A DNA stretch of 64,000 nucleotides from Lachnospiraceae bacterium (GCA_051880395.1 JBJENW010000108.1:3677-67676), one strand, 5' to 3'; counted from the stretch's first letter, positions 4,138 to 64,000 are shown. Numbers and translations are program-made. Notes: generated from the letters alone by a model not told the origin.

Positions 4138-4490
4138 GCGGACGTTTCCGGGATTTGGACAGACGCAGGTTACGGGACGGCAGCTTTCAGAGGGACCAGA
4201 CAAAAATGCAGTCAAGTTCGCGACGGGCCAATCTGCGATGCTTTATTTTTGCTGTTTTCCGAAGGTCGTACAGTCTGCACAAAGATGTACGCCAGAGCAA
4301 GACTCAAAGTCGGATTCTTTCTCTGGCGTACACCTTTGCACAGCCAGTCCGCCAATCGGCAAAACAGCAAAGGCATCGCAGATTGGCCCGTCGGAACTTA
4401 CTAGCATTTCTGTCAAGGTCCCTCTGAAAGCTGCCGTCCCGTAACCTGCGTCTGTCCAAATCCCGGAAACTGTGTATCGGAACCGAGAGG
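4138..4490. repeat. long hairpin-forming intergenic repeat, copy A
   Basis: The element starts with GCGGACGTTTCCGGGA and ends with TCCCGGAAACTGTGTATCGGAACCGAGAGG. The arm GGACAGACGCAGGTTACGGGACGGCAGCTTTCAGAGGGACC pairs perfectly with its reverse complement about 250 nt downstream. The core is shared with copies B and C. Confidence 0.85.
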
Positions 4491-4766
4491 TTATATTTTT
4501 TGAAAATGAAAAGTATAAATCTTACATGCAGAATATCGTTTCGATCACTTTTCATATACTGACAGATCTCAGCCGCATAACCGCAGGATTTATCTGTATA
4601 AAAAATATGCGAGACCTTATGCAGTTCGTAAAATTTGTGATGAATTTTGAATACATTACGTTTTCTTAAGAAACATATTTTAATCTTTTGCAACTGATTA
4701 TTGGAAACGAGAGGTTAAAATCTGTTTCGTTTGCACCAGAAAGTTGTGGCCATAGAAAATTCACTG

Positions 4767-5122
4767 TCTTTCGGTTCCAATACACAGTTTCCGGGATTCG
4801 GCGGGGAGATTCGCACTGGGGATGGCTGGTTCAAAAGTGGCTTTGACAGAAATGTTAGTGAGCTCGGGCGGGTAAAATTGCGATGCCTTTGCTGTCTTGC
4901 CGTAAGGCGGAAAGGCTGTGCGGATTTGTACGCCAGAGAAAGAATCCGCTTTTGAGTCTTACTCTGGCGTACAAATCCGTGCAGACTGTCCGACATACGG
5001 AAGACAGCAAAAATAAAGCATCGCAATTTTGCCCGTCCGAACTCGACTTCATTTCTGTCTAGCCACTTTTGAACCAGCCATCCCCAGTGCAAATCTCCCC
5101 GCCGAATCCCGGAAACGTCCGC
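4767..5122. repeat. long hairpin-forming intergenic repeat, copy B (inverted relative to A)
   Basis: The element starts with CTTTCGGTTCCAATACACAGTTTCCGGGA and ends with TCCCGGAAACGTCCGC. Its outer stem CGGCGGGGAGATTCGCACTGGGGATGGCTGGTTCAAAAGTGGC is self-complementary but unrelated in sequence to the stem of A. Confidence 0.85.
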
Positions 5123-10575: not shown

Positions 10576-10776
10576 CTCTCAAAGCTCTTTATCCTTGATT
10601 TTGAGAGTTCATACATAATGTTTTCTCGGAATCTCTTTGTGCTTGATTTTGTGAGATGATTTTTTGTCAGATGTGCACAAATTTATGAGGCGTACGTGGA
10701 GCGTACGTTGATTAAATTTGTGTGCATCTGACGGAAAATCATCCGCAAAAGCGGGCGCAAGGGAGATTCCGAGAGA
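10576..10776 (+). promoter_or_regulatory. structured 5' leader: a small hairpin (10576-10607) plus a ~154-nt hairpin (10623-10776)
   Basis: I paired arms 10623-10696 and 10702-10776 by hand. The result is about 70 paired positions, about 13 of them G.U on the plus strand and none A.C. The hairpin ends 25 nt before the ATG at 10802. Confidence 0.55.
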
Positions 10777-10801
10777 ACATCAAAAAAGGAGGAGGCTTTT
10801 T

Positions 10802-20116: not shown

Positions 20117-21607
20117 TTAAATTCCCAAGAATTTTTTTACAACTTCTGGCATTTCTTCTACTTCGCAAACGGTTTTATGGCGAATATCCGCATTCCGAAT
20201 TTCTTCGATCGCATTTGGAACTTTTACATTTCCAATTCTGCTCAGTTCGTCAACTAACTCGAAATCTCCCATTGCATCATATTTTTCTTTATCAATCGCA
20301 TCCATAACGCTTCTGGTAAATTTAAACGGACTTGCTGTTGAAGCAATAACGGTTTTTGTAGTATCCCCCGTATCTTTGCAATATTTTTTGTAAACACCTG
20401 CCGCAACAGATGTATGCGTATCAATGATATATCCTGTCTTTTCATACAAATTCTTGATGGTTGCCGCACACTCTGCTTCTGTCTCATAATTTCCATAGAA
20501 ATCCTTCAACTCTGCCTGCATCGCATCGGTGATCGTATAAACACCTTCTGTTGTCAGCTGTTTCATCAACTCCGCATTCTTTTTCGCATCATTTCCGGCA
20601 ATTCGATAGATCAGACGTTCCAGATTGCTGGAGATCAGAATATCCATCGACGGTGACGTTGTAAGAATGAAATCACGATTTTTATCATATGTACCTGTTG
20701 TAAAGAAATCATACAGTACTTTATTGTCATTTGACGCACAGATCAGTTTATTGATCGGAAGTCCCATATTTTTTGCATAATAAGCAGCTAAGATATTTCC
20801 AAAGTTTCCCGTTGGAACAACAACATTGATCTTTTCTCCTTCTTTGATGGAACCCTTCTTCAACAATTGACCATATGCATATACATAATAAACGATCTGC
20901 GGAACCAAACGTCCAATATTAATGGAATTAGCTGATGAGAACTGGAATCCGGCTGCATCCATCTCTTTTGCAAGCTGTGGATCAGAAAACATTTTCTTGA
21001 CACCTGTCTGAGCCTGGTCGAAGTTTCCATGGATTCCTACTACAAAGGTATTTTCTCCTTTTTGTGTTACCATCTGTTTTTCCTGAATCGGGCTGACGCC
21101 GTTCTTCGGATAAAATACTACGATTTTTGTTCCTTCTACATCCGCAAATCCAGCCAACGCTGCTTTTCCGGTATCTCCGGATGTGGCCGTCAAAATAACG
21201 ATCTCATTTTTTACCTGATTTTTCTTTGCGGAAGTAATCATAAGATGTGGCAAAATGGATAATGCCATATCCTTAAACGCAATTGTAGAACCGTGGAACA
21301 GCTCTAAGAAATATGCGCCGTCTGCTTCTTTCAACGGTGCGATTTCTTCTGTATCGAATTTACTGTCATAAGCACTACGAATACAGTGTTTCAGTTCTTC
21401 CTCCGTGAAATCGGTAAGAAACTGTTTCATAACAGCGTATGCCGTCTCCTGATAATTCATCTGAGCCAGATCCTTCAATGAAACATCCAATGCCGGAATC
21501 GAATCCGGTACAAATAAACCGCCATCATTTGCAAGTCCTTTCAAAATTGCCTGAGATGCTGTTACTTTTTCATCTGGGTTTCTTGTGCTTGAAAATAACA
21601 AATCCAT
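20117..21607 (-). CDS. thrC: threonine synthase
   Basis: 496 aa with the PLP-lysine motif TIAFKDMALS and the overall long-form ThrC layout. Confidence 0.9.
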   Translation of the reverse strand: MDLLFSSTRNPDEKVTASQAILKGLANDGGLFVPDSIPALDVSLKDLAQMNYQETAYAVMKQFLTDFTEEELKHCIRSAYDSKFDTEEIAPLKEADGAYFLELFHGSTIAFKDMALSILPHLMITSAKKNQVKNEIVILTATSGDTGKAALAGFADVEGTKIVVFYPKNGVSPIQEKQMVTQKGENTFVVGIHGNFDQAQTGVKKMFSDPQLAKEMDAAGFQFSSANSINIGRLVPQIVYYVYAYGQLLKKGSIKEGEKINVVVPTGNFGNILAAYYAKNMGLPINKLICASNDNKVLYDFFTTGTYDKNRDFILTTSPSMDILISSNLERLIYRIAGNDAKKNAELMKQLTTEGVYTITDAMQAELKDFYGNYETEAECAATIKNLYEKTGYIIDTHTSVAAGVYKKYCKDTGDTTKTVIASTASPFKFTRSVMDAIDKEKYDAMGDFELVDELSRIGNVKVPNAIEEIRNADIRHKTVCEVEEMPEVVKKFLGI

Positions 21608-21749
21608 TTATCCATCCATCCTTCTTATTTCAAAAATTTTTCTACTATGTAAAACTACACCATCTCATTATACGCGATAAAATCGCTCCCTGTCAATCAC
21701 ATTTCCCGGATTCCTCTAAAAATATCTCAACCATCGTTGGTATCCCCAC

Positions 21750-21947
21750 GCGGACGTTTCGCAACACGCCGGGCATCTCTGCGAAAAACACGGCTCCTGT
21801 TCAGGTAAGCTAACTCTTAAGATTCTCTAAGACACTCAGGATCGCCTTCGTGCCTAAGAGAATCTAAAGAGTGGATCTCACCTGCACCCGCCGAAACGTT
21901 TTTTCGCAGAGATGCCCGGCGTGTTGCGAAACTGTGTACTGGAAACG
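21750..21947. repeat. hairpin repeat, copy D (same ends as A, different interior)
   Basis: Ends GCGGACGTTTC...GAAACTGTGTACTGGAAACG. The 33-bp outer stem GTTTCGCAACACGCCGGGCATCTCTGCGAAAAA pairs perfectly with TTTTTCGCAGAGATGCCCGGCGTGTTGCGAAAC. Confidence 0.8.
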
Positions 21948-21975
21948 GAAAAGATCTCAACCAATCGGTTTCATT

Positions 21976-22062
21976 ACACAGTTTTCGGTATCCGGCAGGA
22001 GGCAAGGACCGGAAACTGTGTATTGGAAACGCTAGGTTGAAATATCTTAACCTCCCGTTTCC
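21976..22062. repeat. minimal copies of the same repeat ends (two short hairpins)
   Basis: First hairpin: ACACAGTTTTCGGT...ACCGGAAACTGTGTATTGGAAACG. Second hairpin: GGAAACGCTAGGTT...AACCTCCCGTTTCC. Confidence 0.6.
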
Positions 22063-22066
22063 GATA

Positions 22067-22402
22067 GACAGTTTCCGAAATTTGGCTGGGTGGGCAAGGC
22101 GGGGCGGCTGCTTTCAGAAGGGCTTTGACAGAAATGTTAGTGAGTTTGGGTGGACAAATCTGCGATGCCTTTGCTGTTTTGCCGAGAGGCGTACAAGCTG
22201 TGCGTAGGTGTATGCGGGAGAAAGAGTCCGCTTCTGAGTCTTTCTCCCACATACACCTGCGTGCAGCTTGTACGACATTCGGAAAACTGCAAAAATAAAG
22301 CATCGCAGATTTGCCCGCCCAAACTCGACTTCATTTCTGTCTAGCCCTTCTGAAAGCAGCCGCCCCGCCTTGCCCATCCAGCCAAATTTCGGAAACGTCC
22401 GC
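22067..22402. repeat. long hairpin-forming intergenic repeat, copy C (same orientation and core as B)
   Basis: GACAGTTTCCGAAATTTGGCTGGGTGGGCAAGGCGGGGCGGCTGCTTTCAGAAGGGC pairs with its complement and ends GGAAACGTCCGC. The core TTTGACAGAAATGTTAGTGAG...TGCGATGCCTTTGCTGT is shared with B. Confidence 0.85.
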
Positions 22403-22413
22403 ATAGAAAACAC

Positions 22414-23613
22414 TCAAATCCCCTGACAAAGCTGATTCATGGATAATACGATTCCCATGATGTCGGCCGAACATTTTTCCATGTTTTGGGACAGATAATT
22501 CACTTGAGAACGTGCTTTTTGAATCAAGGACTGGTTATAGTCCAAATGCTCCTGCAATTTATGCTGACGGTTGATGAGATTCTGCCGCTCTTTTTCTATC
22601 TCTTCGTCATCTAACAAAATATCGATCTGATCAAACCACAGTTTCTCATCTGTCAGATTCAACTCATGTAAAATCCTGCTTAATTTTTCCTCATAATATT
22701 CTAAATCATCGCTGGTTTCCATATACTTTTTACGCTGTTTCACACTGTCCATATACTGTTCCCATTCGTAAAGCAGCTCCTGACCACTTTTTACATGATA
22801 TTTTGCACAGGCATAATCAACCGCATTTGTTACATTCACATACTTCACTTTCATCTTATTTTCGCGCTCAATCGCATAATTCCGGTTGACGTTGATTTTA
22901 TGCAGTTCGGTAATATTGTACTGACGTTTCATAAAAATGCCAAATGTTAACATTGCGACAACAAAGATCAGAAGGAAAAATGCATTTTCACAATGCAGAC
23001 GAAATCCCTCCTTCAAAACAAATAGAAGCACGATCCCTACTCCACAGACACCACACAGACAATACAATAATTGCTGCAGCGTGGTCTGTTCTTCTGTCAG
23101 CTGTTCTTGTCGTATTGCCAACTGCTCTTTTTCGCTCGACAAATATTGCATATCTCGTTTCACGGCTGCCTGATATTTCTCGTTTGCCTGTAGGCGACGA
23201 ATCTCATCCGGCATTTCCTCTTCCTTCTGCTGCATCTGAAGAAAAATCGCATCTTCCATCCGATGGCCTGCTTTTCGGTAATTTTCTCTTGCATTTGTCA
23301 GTTTGCGCACATTTTGAACCGTCTCTTTGAGTTCCGCACTTTTTTCTTCCGGAAGTGCTTTCAGCTTTTCAATATCAGCCAGATAATCGCAAACCTCATG
23401 ATATTCTTTTCGACCTTCCTCTAACTCTTTTGTATTTTCCATGATCGTTTCACACTGAGAAACGATATAGTGTTCAATTTCCTCTCGATTACTTTTCGGT
23501 TTTGACACCCGCTCCACTGGCGGTAATTCCGGTTCTTCCTCCTCGCCAACCGAATATTGCTGAATCGGCTTTGACTGCTTTTCATTCTTTTTTTTCCAAT
23601 GAAACCACTTCAT
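22414..23613 (-). CDS. coiled-coil membrane protein, unknown function (4th gene of orphan operon)
   Basis: 399 aa. It has a charged, heptad-like N-terminal half, two hydrophobic helices (LLYCLCGVCGVGIVLLFVL and FFLLIFVVAMLTFGIFM) and a second coiled-coil-like half. A GGGGGAG RBS precedes it. Confidence 0.6.
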   Translation of the reverse strand: MKWFHWKKKNEKQSKPIQQYSVGEEEEPELPPVERVSKPKSNREEIEHYIVSQCETIMENTKELEEGRKEYHEVCDYLADIEKLKALPEEKSAELKETVQNVRKLTNARENYRKAGHRMEDAIFLQMQQKEEEMPDEIRRLQANEKYQAAVKRDMQYLSSEKEQLAIRQEQLTEEQTTLQQLLYCLCGVCGVGIVLLFVLKEGFRLHCENAFFLLIFVVAMLTFGIFMKRQYNITELHKINVNRNYAIERENKMKVKYVNVTNAVDYACAKYHVKSGQELLYEWEQYMDSVKQRKKYMETSDDLEYYEEKLSRILHELNLTDEKLWFDQIDILLDDEEIEKERQNLINRQHKLQEHLDYNQSLIQKARSQVNYLSQNMEKCSADIMGIVLSMNQLCQGI

Positions 23614-34272: not shown

Positions 34273-34424
34273 TCCCTTCTTTTTTTATGTTCTCTCGGAG
34301 TCTCCTCTGATTCTGCTTTTGATCTCCTATTGAATACACACAAATTCCATCGCAATCTTTTGAAATGAAAATCCGTGTTTCAGTATACCGTATCCGGTCA
34401 AAGAACGCAAGTCATGTTTTTTTC

Positions 34425-57167: not shown

Positions 57168-60100
57168 TTATTTTACTTTTACAGTCATTGTAACGGTTTT
57201 CTTTGTTCCGTTCTTCAAAGTTACTGTTGCCTTGATCTTTGCTGTTCCTGCTTTCTTTGCTTTGATCTTACCGGTTTTTGTAACGGTTGCAACAGTTGTT
57301 TTTGTAGATTTGTATGCAATCTTCTTAACATTTGCTTTGTCGAATTTCGAACCAAATGTCATCTGGATCGTCTTGTTTTTCTTTATACTTGCAGAAGTCT
57401 TCTTCAATGTAACCGTCTTTAAGACAGCTTTTTCCATTGCCTTGGTATCTGCTGCATTTAAGAGCTGGTACGTACCTTTGCCCTTTACAGTTGCGCTGAC
57501 ATTTCCGCTTGTAGATACTTTGTAGGATTTGTCATTGACCAGTGTTTTCTTTCCAGTCTTCGAATCTACTTTGACAATTGTCAGTTTTTTGCCTTTTTTC
57601 AGATCAGCAACATTTGCTTTCAATGTATATGCGGTCTTGCCATTTTTATCTGTGACCGTCTGGCTGATCTGTACGCTCTTTGTTCCAGCTGCTTCCTGCA
57701 CTTGTTTTGCTACCGTTGCAGAGATGGTTCCCTTTGTACCTTCTTTTGTGGTACTTCCCTGTTTCTTGATCGTTGCAGTTGCCGTTACTTTTCCTTTGGA
57801 ATCCGTCTTTACGCTGACAGTTGCAGTCGCATTCTTCTCTACATTCTTGATGACGGAGGTTTTCACTTTGGAAGTAACTTTTCCTTTGGTATTGGTATTT
57901 GTCACTGTCGTAACTGCTACCTGTTTTCCAGACTTATTCGTCGTGGTCGTCTTTGTTGTTTCCTTTGCAGAACCATTCGCCGCTGTTTCTACTTTTTTAG
58001 TAGAACCGTCTGCTTTCTTTTCTGTCACGATTGAAGAACCGTCTGCTTTTTCCTCTTTCTTTTCATAGGAGCCGTCCGGTTTCTCTACGGTTGCGATCGT
58101 GGTTCCATCTACCTTGGTTTCTATTTTTTTTGTCGTTCCATCTTTCTCAATTTCCGTATGGAGTGTGGAACCATCCAGATTTGTCTGATCCGTGACCGTT
58201 GTTCCGTCTTTTTCTGTCGATACCGTTCTGCTGCCATCCCCATTCGTTACGGTCTCGATCACCGTTCCGTCTACGTCGATTTCAGACTCGATTACCGTTC
58301 CATCTGTTCTGGTTTCCGTCTTATTGATGGAGCCGTCTAAGTAGGTGATTGTCTTGATGACTGTTCCATCCGTTTTTTCTTCCGTTACAACTTCTGTACC
58401 GTCTGCTCGTTTCTCCGTCGTTACGATCGTACCGTCTTCTTTTACCTCTGTCTTTTTATCCTCGCTCGGTGCCTGACTTGGTGCGGTACTCGGATTTGTA
58501 CTTGGCTGCGTGCTTGGTTCTACACTCGGTGTCGTACTCGGCTCGGTGCTTGGTTCAACACTTGGTGCGGTACTCGGCTCAGTGCTTGGTACGACACTTG
58601 GTTCCGTGCTTGGCTCGGTACTCGGTGCAACACTTGGTTCTACACTCGGTGTACTTGGGCCGGTGCTTGGTACGACACTTGGTTCCGTGCTTGGCTCGGT
58701 ACTTGGTGCAACACTTGGTTCTACACTCGGTGTACTTGGCTCGGTACTCGGTGCAACACTTGGTTCTACACTCGGTGTCGTACTTGGCTCAGTGCTCGGT
58801 GTTGAAGGTGTAACCGTTCCGCCACCACCGCCAGTTCCTGTACCACCGCCGGTACTTGGTCTCTGTTCCGGTACTACAGACACTTTACAAAAGACTCTCT
58901 TTGTTGTTCCGTCTTCTGCTTTATACTGTGCCTCAACAGCAGTTGTTCCTACCACTCTTGCTGTTACTGTTGCAGTATTTGCATCGCCCTTTGTCACGGT
59001 TGCAATCGACGGATTCAGTGAAATCCATGTGATCTCGCCTGTTGCTCCAGTTGCTCTAAGCACTGCTGTTCTATTCGGATTCAAGGAAACGTTTGTCCGA
59101 TTCAGTGTGAATACCTCGTTATTGCTTACAATAACTCGATAGCTATATGATGCATTTCCACATTCTGCAGTAATCGTTACTGTTCCAGGTGTAATACCCT
59201 CAATTTCTGCTGTTTTTCCCTGATTACTTACATTTGCAATGAATGGGTCTGCGGTTGTCCATTCGATCTTATCCGTTGCATTTTCCGGTGTTACAGTTGC
59301 TGTCAATGTAATCTTATCATCCACTGTAACTGCGGTTGGTCCAGAAATCGTAATGCCTGTCGATGCTTCTGACGGAACCGTCACTGTGCAGGTTGCTGTG
59401 TAGAAACCGGACTGTACCGTGATCTCTGCGGTTCCCGGTTCTACGCCTGTAACCGTTCCATCTTGATCTACTGTTGCAACATCTTCGTTGGATGAGAACC
59501 ATCTGACAGCATCTGGTGAACCTGCCGGATTTACCACTGCTACTAGTGGGGCTGTTGCTCCAATTTTCACCTCAGCTGTTTCCCTGTTCAGTGATACGCT
59601 TGTTGTAGAAGTACCTTCCGGTGCCGCTGTAGCAGATTTAAATTCATCCGAAATTGTTTCAATACCCGAAACCGTTGTAGCCGGATCCACATAAATTTTC
59701 GGACCGTTTGTTCCTCCTGTTACATGAAAAATATTCAGTGCATCTTCTTTTGCTGTTACCGTACCAAAAATATTGACAAATACGTTTTCAGATACTAAAA
59801 GATCCTCATCTGTATTTTCATTAAAATCATCTGTATCATAAACCACAATTCCGTAGGTTTCCTGTGCAACTACGGTTGCGTCTTTTTTAACATTCAACTG
59901 TGTTTTTTCTGTTGTGCCTTCTTTTCCACCCATGATGTCGATCATACCATTTGCATAGTCTGTCGTACTGGTGAAATATCCTGCCTGCAAAGTTACCGTT
60001 CCACCTTTTTCGATGTGGAACAGCTGATGTTTTCCACTTGCATCAATCGTTGGATGTGCAACGCTATCTTCTGCTGCTCCAATAATTTCAAGATCACTGT

Positions 60101-60404
60101 TACGAACCGTAAATGTGATATCACCAGAAATCGTCTTTCCATTCGTGATCAATTTTTTTGCACCAACCACAGTGATATCATCTGTTGCTGCGATATCAGC
60201 AGTCAGCTCTACCTCTGTGATCTTCGGATTCGTCAGTGCCGCCTGTAACTCTGCAAAATTCCCCACTTTCGTCGATGTTTCTGCCTGTGTACTGATTGTT
60301 GTCTCTTCTGCCCAGACTGGCAACGCACTGCCCGGCACGCTCCCCACTGCAATTGCCGATGCCATCATCAAGGCAAACAGTTTACAAATCTTTTTGTTCT
60401 TCAT
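57168..60404 (-). CDS. large secreted surface protein: unassigned N-terminal domain, Big_2-type Ig domains, Pro/Ser/Thr linker, DGT-repeat module, basic Ig-like C-terminus
   Basis: Signal peptide [25 protein letters not shown]. Several Big_2-like units are present (e.g. [21 protein letters not shown]). There is a [12 protein letters not shown] tandem array and about 16 repeats of roughly 11 aa containing DGT. I saw no LPXTG motif. Confidence 0.8.
58461..58815 (-). repeat. in-frame tandem DNA repeat encoding the (P-S-T/V-E-P-S) linker
   Basis: Near-identical blocks of about 90 nt recur (GGTACGACACTTGGTTCCGTGCTTGGCTCGGTACT(C/T)GGTGCAACACTTGGTTCTACACTCGGTGTACTTGG). They translate as [26 protein letters not shown]. 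Confidence 0.85.
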
Positions 60405-60598: not shown

Positions 60599-61280
60599 CT
60601 AATCTAAATTTTTTTTTAATTCTTCCACTAATTTGTAAACCGTAGTGCCCGGATCATACTGTGAAGGTTTATATCCCCCTTTTTCAAACTGAGCCATTCT
60701 TCGTTTTGCATGCTTAATCGCTGTATCTACACCATCATACATATTTACCAAATCATATATATTCTCGTAGTTTTTTTTGGTATCTTCCATTGCCCAAATT
60801 AAATTTTTGAAATTCTGTATCCAATCTTTGATTCCACTGTGATCGATGTAATGCAACGTCGCTGTAATTAAAATGTAAATACAACCAATATTCAAACGCC
60901 TGATTACTCCATGCCACATGATACCCTTTCGCCTCAGCTGCTTGAATCGCCTGATCAAAATCGTCAAAATCATCTTTATCAAATACAAGCCATACATTTT
61001 GATAAATAATTTTCGCATCTTTTACAATCTGATCTGTTACCTCAAGTAATTTACTTGTGGAACATCCATGCCCTTGTATTTGAATCATCGGTTTTTCCAC
61101 AACATCCACGATTCCTCCTACTTTTTCAAGTATGAGTTTTTGCAATCCTTTAAAATACAAAGGTTCTGTACATGTTCCTTCTGTTACGATCAAAAATGAA
61201 TTGGCCTTCGGTGTTTTATATTCATATTTTCTTTGTTTTCTCGCTTGACGACGTTTTTTAAATAAATCATCTGTCCCCAT
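60599..61280 (-). pseudogene. RloB-like (AbiLii-like) gene interrupted by a 1-nt frameshift in an A8 tract
   Basis: One frame carries the N-terminal RloB motifs (FLIVTEGTCTEPLYF, VWLVFDKDDF, AWSNQAFEYWLYLHF). The C-terminal part (NYENIYDLV...DTAIKHAKRR...PGTTVYKLVEEL) continues in another frame. The switch is at CCAAAAAAAACTAC (60771-60778). Confidence 0.75.
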
Positions 61281-62474
61281 CTAATCGCCCTCTTTCATAT
61301 CAAAATCTTTCAGCCATGGTATTCCACCATATACTCCTGCCAAATAATCTTTTTCAAATGAGGAATCTGATCTTACTTTAAAATCCGATAGAGCAGACAA
61401 TTTTGAATATCCAAATTCATCCTTTTGAACAAACCAAATCTGGTCTCGTCGAAAAAACTTTTTATCCATCAATGTAGTATCATGCGTTGTATAGATCAAC
61501 TGTGCCTTGGATTTTTGATCATAAAACAAATCTATAATAAATTTCAATAACAGTGGGTGCAATTTTGCATTTAATTCATCTACAAAAATCGTACGATTAT
61601 TCAATATAGCCGTCTGGGAATAAATAAAAAATAGTATACTTTTTATCGTTCCCTCTGATTCATAAAACAAATCCAACGAATACGACTTTCCATCTTTCCC
61701 TTTATGAAATGTTGTAAATTTGATATTTTTCTCACTATCATCGTATTCAATATCCTTAATCCCTGTATCAGTCGCAGACAAAAAGCAAAGTAACTTTTTC
61801 TTATCAAAATCAATCACTTGAGGAAGAAGTGCTTTTAACAATCTTGGATTCTCACAAAAATCTGTTGGGATAACCAAAATATCCATAATTCCTTTATAAA
61901 CTTCATTAAAAATGTTTGTCTTCAGTTTTAACTTTTTAAAGAAGGATAACACTAACGTTTCAATTGGAATCTGCTCTCCATATAATTCACATTCTTTTCG
62001 AACAGTAGGACCAAACCGTACTTCTTTTGTAGTTCGTTCAAATATCGTTGTAGTCCGATTTGTTTGCAGATTTTTTCGATATAACCATTCCGTCACAATG
62101 CATTCTTCGTTATATTCGAACCCATACTTATATTCAAAATCTCCTAAAATCTGCACGATTTCAAACTCTGAATTTTCTTTACAACCATCAAGTGAAAACG
62201 GTTCGTAATATTTTTCAATTGCAGTTGTCTCATCCTCCGCCACATTATTTAAAGATTCCCGAATAATTCTTTGAAAATAGTTCATCGCCATATATAAATT
62301 CGATTTACCACTTGCATTAGCTCCATAAATCGCAGAAACCTTAAGATATTTTTCTTTCGTTCCGTTCTCAATCAAATTACATTCATGTTCCTTATATGCA
62401 CGAATCGCTGTCATATCTAAAATGGTTTCCTCTTTAAAAGATAAAACGTTCTTTAACATAAACTGTACCAACAT
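61281..62474 (-). CDS. ABC-type AAA ATPase (AAA_15/AAA_21-like; AbiLi/RloA-like partner of RloB)
   Basis: Walker A GANASGKSN, Walker B TIFVDELNAKLHP, and TTHD. Its stop codon abuts the RloB start codon. Confidence 0.8.
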   Translation of the reverse strand: MLVQFMLKNVLSFKEETILDMTAIRAYKEHECNLIENGTKEKYLKVSAIYGANASGKSNLYMAMNYFQRIIRESLNNVAEDETTAIEKYYEPFSLDGCKENSEFEIVQILGDFEYKYGFEYNEECIVTEWLYRKNLQTNRTTTIFERTTKEVRFGPTVRKECELYGEQIPIETLVLSFFKKLKLKTNIFNEVYKGIMDILVIPTDFCENPRLLKALLPQVIDFDKKKLLCFLSATDTGIKDIEYDDSEKNIKFTTFHKGKDGKSYSLDLFYESEGTIKSILFFIYSQTAILNNRTIFVDELNAKLHPLLLKFIIDLFYDQKSKAQLIYTTHDTTLMDKKFFRRDQIWFVQKDEFGYSKLSALSDFKVRSDSSFEKDYLAGVYGGIPWLKDFDMKEGD

Positions 62475-62777: not shown

Positions 62778-64000
62778 TTAATTTTTACCGTCATGGTAAC
62801 AGTCTTCTTCTTTCCGTTCTTTAATGTGACAGTTGCCTGAATCTTTACACTTGATCTTACCATTCTTTGATACAGTTGCAACACTAGATTTTCCTGACTT
62901 GTATGTGATTGTTTTTACATTTGCCATATCCAGTTTACTGCTAAATGTCATCTTCGTCTCTTTATTCTTCTTCAGTGTGGTACTTGTTTTCTTTGATGCA
63001 ACGGTCTTTAAGACTGCTTTTTCCACTTTCTTGGTATCTGAGGCATTTAAGAACTGATAGGTTCCTTTTGTCTTAAATGTCGCGCTGACGTTTCCACCTG
63101 CAGATACTTTATAATTCGTCGCATTGACCAGTGTCTGTTTGCCGGTCTTTGGATCTACTTTGACAACGGTCAGCGTTTTTCCTTTCTTTAAGTCCGCAGC
63201 GTTGGCTTTTAATGTATAAGCAGTCTTTCCCTTCTTATCCGTCACCGCCTGGCTAATCTGGACTTTCTTGCTTCCGGCTGCCTCCTGTACCTGTGTGACA
63301 ACAGCTGCACTGATCGTGCCTTTCGTTCCCGACTTCGATGTGCTGCCCGGTTTCTTGACGGATGCCGTTGCAGTCACCTTACCCTTCGAATCCGTCTTTA
63401 CGGTAATGGTTGCGGTCGCATTTTTCTCTATTTTTTCGATGACAGAGGTCTCAACTTTGGAAGTCACTTTGCCCTTCTTATCTGTCTTTGTCACTTCCGT
63501 GACAGCTACTTTCTTGCCGGATTTGTTGGTCTCTGTGGCTTTTACGGTCTCCGTTGCGGCACCACTTGCGGTTGTCACCCGTTTCACGGTCGTACCGTCG
63601 GCTTTCTTCTCGTTCATCACAGAAGAACCGTCGGTCTTTGTCTCCGTCTTCTTGTAGGAGCCGTCCGGACGCTCTTCGCTGATCTCTTTGGAACCGTCCG
63701 GGTTCTCATTTGTTTCGATGGTGGTTCCATCGGCTTTGTTCTCAACTTTGTTCATGGTTCCGTCTGCGGAAATCTCTGTCTTTGTGGTGCTTCCATCCGG
63801 TTTTTCTTCGGTAATGACTTTGGAACCGTCGTCCTTGGTCTCTGTGGTAACGGTAGTTCCGTCTTCTTTTGTTTCTGTGGTTGTATCGATCGTGCTTGGT
63901 CCGCTCGGTTTTGTGCTCGGTGCCTCACTCGGAGCATCGCTTGGTTCTTCGCTCGGAGCAGTACTTGGTTCTTTGCTTGGCTCTTCACTTGGAGCGGTGC
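62778..64000 (-). CDS. paralogous surface protein, C-terminal part only (continues beyond window end); C-terminus frameshifted relative to paralogue 1
   Basis: The frame stays open through 64000 (TAPSEEPSKEPSTAPSEEPS...DGT repeats...). From the DGT repeats onward it aligns with the C-terminal ~330 aa of the 57168-60404 product. The last ~20 aa diverge because of a 17-nt length difference. Confidence 0.8.
   Translation of the reverse strand, partial: TAPSEEPSKEPSTAPSEEPSDAPSEAPSTKPSGPSTIDTTTETKEDGTTVTTETKDDGSKVITEEKPDGSTTKTEISADGTMNKVENKADGTTIETNENPDGSKEISEERPDGSYKKTETKTDGSSVMNEKKADGTTVKRVTTASGAATETVKATETNKSGKKVAVTEVTKTDKKGKVTSKVETSVIEKIEKNATATITVKTDSKGKVTATASVKKPGSTSKSGTKGTISAAVVTQVQEAAGSKKVQISQAVTDKKGKTAYTLKANAADLKKGKTLTVVKVDPKTGKQTLVNATNYKVSAGGNVSATFKTKGTYQFLNASDTKKVEKAVLKTVASKKTSTTLKKNKETKMTFSSKLDMANVKTITYKSGKSSVATVSKNGKIKCKDSGNCHIKERKEEDCYHDGKN

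Follow-up and report, generated by a model that had tools for sequence, protein, structure and literature searches.

The segment 21719-22413 of a 64,000-nt stretch of DNA from a Lachnospiraceae bacterium (below, the window is that whole stretch) is probably, at roughly 65%, one three-unit composite copy of an undescribed, non-coding, dispersed DNA repeat built of nested palindromes. The reading as a dispersed DNA repeat is drawn from the many contexts in which the modules occur, from an orientation that is independent of the neighbouring genes, from units inverted relative to each other within a locus, and from searches in which no internal promoter-like site and no Rfam or Pfam family was found. 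The repeat is a curious large relative of the known bacterial palindromic repeats and not a new type of system; its architecture is unusual and undescribed, yet no new mechanism is required.

Anatomy of the array and of its sister locus

The 653 bases at 21750-22402 are flanked on one side by the stop codon (22414-22416, minus strand) of a 399-aa gene, the final gene of a DUF5716/DUF5717 operon, and on the other by a promoter-like site of thrC, the array being located upstream of thrC (20117-21607). This sigma-70-type site (21667-21696, minus strand) agrees with the consensus at 12/12 positions (TTGACA, 18 nt, TATAAT) and stands about 60 nt before the thrC start, just beyond the array edge.

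According to the inverted-repeat search and folding, five hairpins, designated D, h1, h2, h3, and C, tile the stretch fully with zero linker bases. The first-pass annotation had described four units arranged head-to-tail; its inverted repeats were recovered at the places given (33-nt arms of D, 54-nt arms of C, and an 11-nt closing pair), but a fifth hairpin, h1, had been missed, and the head-to-tail order did not hold, since the favoured folding strand is minus for D and plus for C, which makes their polarity opposite, and since unit A is inverted relative to unit B in the sister locus. All five hairpins are enclosed by the closing stem GCGGAC(GTTTC)/(GAAAC)GTCCGC, an 11-nt pair with 100% complementarity at 21750-21760/22392-22402, of which the left half consists of GCGGAC (21750-21755) and the shared GTTTC and the right half is GAAACGTCCGC, with GTCCGC at 22397-22402. 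Outside this stem the outer arms are mostly lost. On the left about 31 nt are retained (21719-21749, AAAAATATCTCAAC...CCCCAC), which align to GCGAAAAATATCTCAAC....ACGGAC of the metagenome contigs L032-L037 and also fall within a direct repeat family. On the right an 11-nt remnant (ATAGAAAACAC), which together with the right half of the closing stem occupies 22392-22413, stops at the stop codon of the 399-aa gene; GAAACGTCCGCATAGAAA is also present at the sister locus.

Hairpin D (21756-21932) is a 177-nt hairpin of type I and of its own D family, with a perfect 33-bp outer stem (21756-21788/21900-21932) and a folding energy of -104.6 kcal/mol on the plus and -118.1 kcal/mol on the minus strand. 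It is followed by h1 (21933-21980, or 21928-21985 and thus 58 nt with the shared 5 nt), a type II hairpin read below as a collapsed inner-arm pair, which retains about 19 nt of one inner arm and about 29 nt of the other. Hairpin h2 (21981-22016) is a type I mini hairpin of 36 nt, read as a collapsed large unit: it aligns to the 5' arms of A, B, and C, and in it the initial 27 nt of the 5' arm run directly into the final 9 nt of the 3' arm. A second type II hairpin read as a collapsed inner-arm pair, h3 (22017-22070), has its tip at GGTTGAAATATCTTAACC and a folding energy of -35.0 kcal/mol. The last member, C (22071-22396, plus as the better-folding strand), is a 326-nt type I hairpin of the A/B/C family, with 54-nt arms that are 98% complementary (22071-22124/22343-22396) and folding energies of -265.5 kcal/mol on the plus and -253.3 kcal/mol on the other strand.

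A type I hairpin opens with GTTTC and closes with GAAAC; in type II the corresponding ends are TGTGTA and TACACA. Neighbouring stems have the 5 nt of GTTTC/GAAAC in common. Because this motif is able to pair with either neighbour, every junction can shift by 5 bp; h1, h2, and h3 together also have an alternative fold as a single 138-nt hairpin. As single-stranded DNA the whole of 21750-22402 reaches -263.9 kcal/mol, compared with -94.4 +/- 6.0 kcal/mol for shuffles (z = -28). The 20-nt linker motif GAAACTGTGTAYYGGAAACG, with up to 3 mismatches allowed, is present six times in the window, where 0.01 is expected, in both orientations and always within the two loci.

At the sister locus (locus 1, 4138-5122) the closing stem is the same and the modules follow each other as A, M, B, where A (4144-4470) is inverted relative to B (4787-5116) and M (4466-4791) is a full inner-arm pair. 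The core of C resembles that of B in direct orientation (79%), as had been noted earlier, and that of A as reverse complement (82%). The similarity among A, B, and C, all from one genome, is only 77-82%. In the composite elements the units are opposite in polarity (A versus B in locus 1; the two units a and b of contig L034, which has the same unit-M-unit layout), and the arrays are therefore globally two-fold symmetric, not tandem. The fact that A is the reverse complement of B in one locus fits a DNA element better than a single transcript.

Both window loci directly follow genes without their own terminator: the four-gene operon upstream of the array described here has no other terminator before it, and likewise the CLC gene at locus 1 has none ahead of its array. 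The hairpin stack may act as a 3' end barrier of the four-gene operon, before the thrC promoter; such a terminator or insulator role is putative and purely conjectural, and the stretch has no U-tract. Both window arrays begin 12-28 nt past a stop codon, and in two metagenome contigs (L032:20-75 and L035:28-58) the element begins about 10-15 nt from a terminator-like hairpin of the preceding gene; a preference for gene 3' ends may be reflected in the starts of the arrays near gene ends. The exact ThrC protein has no database record, and the closest relatives of the 399-aa gene (58-59% identity) have neither the array nor thrC adjoining, so that no empty site was found.

Several other features of the window were recorded. 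At 60753-62474 (minus strand) the gene of an AAA_21 ATPase (397 aa) adjoins the gene of an RloB-like protein (175 aa), a pairing typical of OLD/AbiL-like anti-phage systems. Two large paralogous ORFs at 57168-60404 and 62778-63998 (minus strand), with segments that are 71% identical (57262-57561 and 62851-63150) and long arrays of 12-nt period (58450-58824 and 63877-63993), are probably repetitive surface proteins. A 47-nt pair that is 81% complementary over a separation of 23 kb (10746-10792 versus 34275-34321; CAAAAGCGGGCGCAAGGGAGATTCCGAGAGAACATC...) may be another small repeat or a common leader motif.

Dispersal, modules and decay of the repeat

Relatives of the array were found by using as protein query a spurious ORF that runs uninterrupted through the three large units: the ORF of unit C retrieved six repeat-derived "proteins" and that of unit A a seventh. 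The ENA metagenome contigs of these seven (L032-L037 and L055), with at least five different flanks and originating from several studies and assemblers, carry C-like units that are 88-92% identical, plus outer arms. The flanks comprise CLC/rnfB and the 399-aa gene/thrC for the window loci, two distinct terminators (L032, L035), and others in L034, L037, and L055; with at least seven flanking contexts that differ among copies, the family is dispersed.

Further, Logan contigs from four runs of pig-gut, dust, and wastewater metagenomes were compared with the region. Their summed depth over 22110-22405 is about 90-200 in all runs but X5, where it is about 10-47, as against about 0-14 over the adjacent unique flank 21592-21813; the contigs break at the repeat, and many variant stems are seen. 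A Logan contig of the same strain ends inside C, and an independent Logan contig is 100% identical to the window up to 22347. The earlier suggestion that the common ends define a family beyond local duplication is thus borne out by the two loci, the seven ENA contigs, and the excess of Logan depth.

The distribution of the family is narrow. A scan for the linker motif in a collection of species-representative genomes returned 22 single matches in unrelated phyla, all taken as chance since none has further similarity; a scan for the core 20-mer in the JGI metagenome collection returned 5 matches, all by chance; scans of viral contigs for the arm, core, and terminal-hairpin motifs gave chance matches or none, and blastn against phages and plasmids gave no match. 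Given these chance matches and blank searches, the repeat is found in a narrow group of pig-gut Lachnospiraceae.

The seven contigs show that the element extends beyond 21750-22402, with outer arms, each about 135-150 nt long and the inverted repeat of the other, that flank the closing stem (in the contigs ...ACGGAC|GTTTCC...GGAAAC|GTCCGT...). The outer-arm consensus is TTACGCTTTATATGAGYGTAAG, itself a small hairpin, followed by ...GTTGGCCACCCGAAACNGTATCGGCTCCAC...GCGAAAAATATCTCAAC...ACGGAC. Each type II hairpin consists of two paired inner arms (...GCGAAAAATATCTCAACCTNCCGTYTCCAATACACA|GTTTCC and complement) homologous to the outer arms, and in the arm alignment both kinds have GCGAAAAATATCTCAAC and GTATCGG in common. 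The order of the element is therefore an outer arm, a type I hairpin, an optional set (inner-arm pair, type I) repeated n times, and an outer arm; L035 and L037 are single-unit copies, locus 1, L034, L036, and L055 have two units, and the array at 21719-22413 (locus 2) has three. Since the modules always meet at GTTTC/GAAAC, each hairpin sits at the exact symmetry centre of the surrounding arms with zero unpaired bases.

At least two families of type I hairpins are distinguished, the A/B/C type of about 325 nt and the 177-nt D type. The latter is also multi-copy, with four other stem variants in Logan contigs between the conserved TTTTTCGC and GAAAC. Its stem matches the mid-stem of A/B/C at 15/18 positions, a similarity that is only suggestive, and the two may be distantly related. 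Among the recovered copies none is complete at both ends with a flank on each side, the outer arms in the window are truncated, and no target-site duplication was identified. No parent IS was identified either, blastn having covered phages and plasmids, and the units gave no sign of being pieces of a known IS. The single-unit copy L037 has, at 400-560, an insertion of about 160 nt at the core tip, which contains two direct repeats of about 70 nt (...GTGCAGGC.(G/A)CATCCTCTCGGA(A)GCA(T/C)TTCTT(T/A)ACTTCTCGGCTGCGATTATC...).

The nature of the small hairpins becomes clear from L055, in which the two outer arms enclose, in this order, a complete unit of 322 nt, a complete inner-arm pair of 346 nt, and D. 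The D of this contig (L055:949-1126) is about 96-97% identical to that of the window and has the same stem, and the 322-nt unit (L055:291-612) begins with 27 nt, GTTTTCGGTATCCGGCAGGAGGCAAGG, identical to h2. At the positions of these full modules the window has h2 (36 nt) and h1 (58 nt). In addition, the arm alignment places h1 and h3 on the proximal part (16-35 nt) of inner-arm pairs, and h3 on the proximal 24-30 nt of both inner arms. The Logan contigs agree: one from run X3 continues past 21950 as GGTTGAGATCTTTTTC..., a full-length arm; loose ends at 22040 and 22045 continue as two full inner-arm variants, TTTTCGCTGAGGAAAAGAGTTGCG... and GATCTGTTTCTTGGGG...; and in an X6 contig 22007 is joined to 22121 via 23 nt of stem, which gives a full unit with the arm of h2.

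As judged from these alignments, all three small hairpins arose by internal deletion, h1 and h3 each from a full arm pair and h2 from a full unit. The presence of full modules in L055 where the window has mini hairpins indicates that the latter are internally deleted and are not arbitrary self-complementary sequence. Two proposals of the first-pass annotation fall accordingly: that only the boundary is conserved, as the interiors are conserved families and the element continues past 21750-22402, and that the ends may enclose 20 to 330 nt of any self-complementary sequence, as the minimal versions are partial modules of which full-length versions exist. The D-side arm of L055 matches contigs of run X2, and these cover the flank upstream of thrC, too, at about 93-94% identity; the other flank of L055 is unrelated to the window. 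L055 may be a recent paralogue or may correspond, in a related strain, to the orthologous site. Decay could proceed by deletions across the hairpin tips that would leave mini hairpins behind. The comparison with L055 shows an array in decay, and its products could be mistaken for separate elements.

Stem conservation and alternative readings

Nine large units, 67-92% alike, were aligned on a common structure of 143 pairs. Standard pairs fill 97.3% of the 1284 pair cells, and 56/143 pairs have changed on both sides, as against 23.3 +/- 3.1 in shuffles and 4-16 in slid controls; many of these both-side changes are transversions (GC to CG, UA to AU). At alignment columns 134-135/195-196 every unit retains a tandem U.G/G.U, and the asymmetric AAATAA loop and fixed 1x1 mismatches are likewise present in all nine. 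All nine also fold better by 3-20 kcal/mol in the orientation of C plus than as the complement, an energy difference that comes mostly from conserved positions. In total 49 G.U and 12 A.C are counted, with most G.U at conserved positions; copy-specific transition mismatches comprise about 14 G.U and 8 A.C, and the bias is not significant. For these reasons the strand-specific excess of G.U was rejected as proof of an RNA. Stems of about 145 bp kept across copies with about 20% divergence, together with conserved mismatches, offer a clean case on the pairing of palindromes and pose the question of selection on a single-stranded intermediate versus copying between the arms.

A coding function finds no backing. 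Pfam gave no family for the ORF-track entries within the palindromes, and the only database relatives of these ORFs are translations of other repeat copies, which upholds their earlier description as artefacts of the palindromes. The frame that is open through all units was rejected as a real gene, as its starts and stops are not conserved, the mirror frames are open too, and no Pfam family was found. The public protein entries P0121-P0127 (77-181 aa) are translations of the palindromic repeat and thus spurious gene calls, P0127 being recorded only with TGA read as Trp. Searches of the whole window against Rfam gave no match at or above the gathering threshold, and below it only miRNA-precursor look-alikes, generic hairpins, were listed at 21600-22500. 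No promoter-like site was found within the arrays, and divergent promoters inside M or h1-h3 were accordingly rejected as a cause of the orientation asymmetry. No RNA run was found to contain the stretch, and four metatranscriptomes yielded no contigs over it, the presence of the organism in those samples not having been shown. The 29 window ORFs scanned, which are housekeeping genes, include no transposase, HUH protein, integrase, or recombinase.

The reading as a dispersed DNA repeat is opposed by several facts: no transposase, RAYT, or integrase could be tied to the element, the window ORFs scanned being housekeeping genes; no copy with both flanks was recovered complete; the divergence of A, B, and C is far above that of typical active MITE or REPIN populations, and non-Watson-Crick features are conserved together with a uniform strand preference in nine of nine units. 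The latter would also fit a functional single-stranded form, possibly RNA, and for this reason the units may, in the main rival reading, be considered as genes for long hairpin RNAs, structured or double-stranded and non-coding, in which selection on the RNA keeps the pairing; the RNA might mature into duplexes or serve as a stabiliser or terminator. The strong covariation, the non-canonical features and asymmetric internal loop in all nine units, the folding advantage of 3-20 kcal/mol in the same orientation with 49 G.U versus 12 A.C, and the position of both window loci directly after genes without a terminator would all suit such RNAs; nevertheless, we regard them as unlikely, since A and B are opposite in one locus and no single transcript has both in the favoured orientation, the arrays are without promoter-like sites, the copy-specific G.U and A.C mismatches do not differ significantly, no Rfam family was matched, and internal-deletion derivatives persist in place. 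It is very improbable that the hairpins are structure-defined recombination sites of the integron attC kind or invertible segments bounded by GTTTC/GAAAC. Although they are imperfect palindromes of variable length with common end motifs, and the 20-nt linker motif occurs in both orientations, the ends GTTTCCG/CGGAAAC do not fit GTTRRRY/RYYYAAC, neither cassettes nor unpaired bases lie between the hairpins, the interiors are conserved families or deletion products thereof, and the window ORFs scanned include neither integrase nor recombinase, while inversion of a near-palindrome would alter almost nothing. Hardly credible, finally, is a product of local duplication or an artefact of metagenome assembly in place of a family: palindromic repeats do break assemblies, the same-strain Logan contig does end inside C, and the motif is absent from the species-representative genome and JGI metagenome collections, but the same modules recur in other contexts and independent assemblies from several studies and assemblers, the four Logan runs show excess depth and variant stems, and an independent Logan contig reproduces the window without a difference up to 22347.

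For the preferred reading, a dispersed DNA repeat, spread or rearrangement would take place at the DNA level via single-stranded hairpin intermediates, and the hairpins might be handled by an enzyme that acts in trans and is encoded elsewhere, as for REPINs and MITEs; mobilisation of this kind, through a hairpin intermediate and a trans-acting enzyme, is suggested by analogy with these elements. A bolder version, which we hold to be quite doubtful, is that the GTTTC/GAAAC junction marks a hairpin-specific enzyme that inserts one module at the tip or symmetry centre of another palindrome. If this were true, the repeat would be a structure-targeted "hairpin-into-hairpin" mobile element, which would explain the linker-free joins, the interchange of D and A/B/C units within the same arms, and the two-fold symmetry, and the conserved non-canonical core pairs would be features recognised by the enzyme on single-stranded DNA or RNA.

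Comparison with known systems

The palindromic repeats of the REP, BIME, and REPIN kind occur in Proteobacteria in association with RAYT genes. In PMC3733652, REP sequences are defined as imperfect palindromes of 20-40 nt with a conserved GTAG or CGTC tetranucleotide at one end. The repeat described here shares with REPs and REPINs its non-coding, extragenic, and multi-copy character; however, the short tagged palindrome of REP, BIME, and REPIN has no counterpart in it, as the hairpins measure 36-330 nt, and their ends are GCGGACGTTTC, GTTTCCGG, and TGTGTA, with the GTAG/CGTC tag absent. REPINs replicate as a hairpin, commonly show compensatory stem changes, and form clusters in which the units alternate in orientation or insert adjoining existing copies (PMC3116915). 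The present repeat resembles them in its compensatory stem changes (97.3% paired, 56 changed on both sides) and in its clusters, with composite arrays at locus 1, locus 2, L034, L036, and L055, but its units are about 10 times larger (hairpins of 177-330 nt in elements of 0.6-1.3 kb), the hairpins are nested in arms of about 135-150 nt, the copies within a genome are only about 80% alike, and it resides in a Firmicute.

Bacterial MITEs that fold into long stem-loops, such as Correia/CREE, ERIC/IRU, RUP, and bcr1, are non-autonomous, non-coding, and intergenic, often located just after genes, and have long terminal inverted repeats; they are able to fold as hairpins in mRNA and thereby to affect its termination or stability. 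The repeat likewise is non-coding, has terminal inverted repeats (arms are seen in L034 and L037), and is multi-copy at unrelated sites, but it is larger than a typical MITE and has two interchangeable hairpin families joined without linkers at a common 5-nt motif.

The BOX elements of Streptococcus pneumoniae have the modular structure boxA-boxB(n)-boxC, are dispersed intergenically, and have strong predicted secondary structure, their modules being directly repeated and 45-59 nt in length. Terminal modules, a variable number of internal modules, and strong secondary structure are common to BOX and to the repeat; there is no sequence relationship, and the modules here, hairpins that reach 330 nt, sit at the symmetry centre of an arm palindrome. 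With attC sites the likeness consists of imperfect palindromes in arrays in which structure outweighs sequence, but RYYYAAC...GTTRRRY boxes are absent, the hairpin bases being GTTTCCG...CGGAAAC (type I) and CGGAAAC...GTTTCCG (type II), the hairpins abut without cassettes, no integrase is found among the window ORFs scanned, and the interiors are conserved families. Of the two likenesses drawn originally, that to REP/BIME clusters is therefore fair as a loose one, and that to attC does not survive the misfit of the motif and the lack of cassettes.

In summary, the repeat is best read as a modular dispersed DNA repeat resembling MITE, REPIN, or BOX elements. In practice short-read assemblies of pig-gut Lachnospiraceae are interrupted at these repeats, which also give rise to spurious protein entries (P0121-P0127). 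With it, the dispersed palindromic repeats as a class, known chiefly from Proteobacteria, gain an example from a Firmicute that is unusually large and modular.
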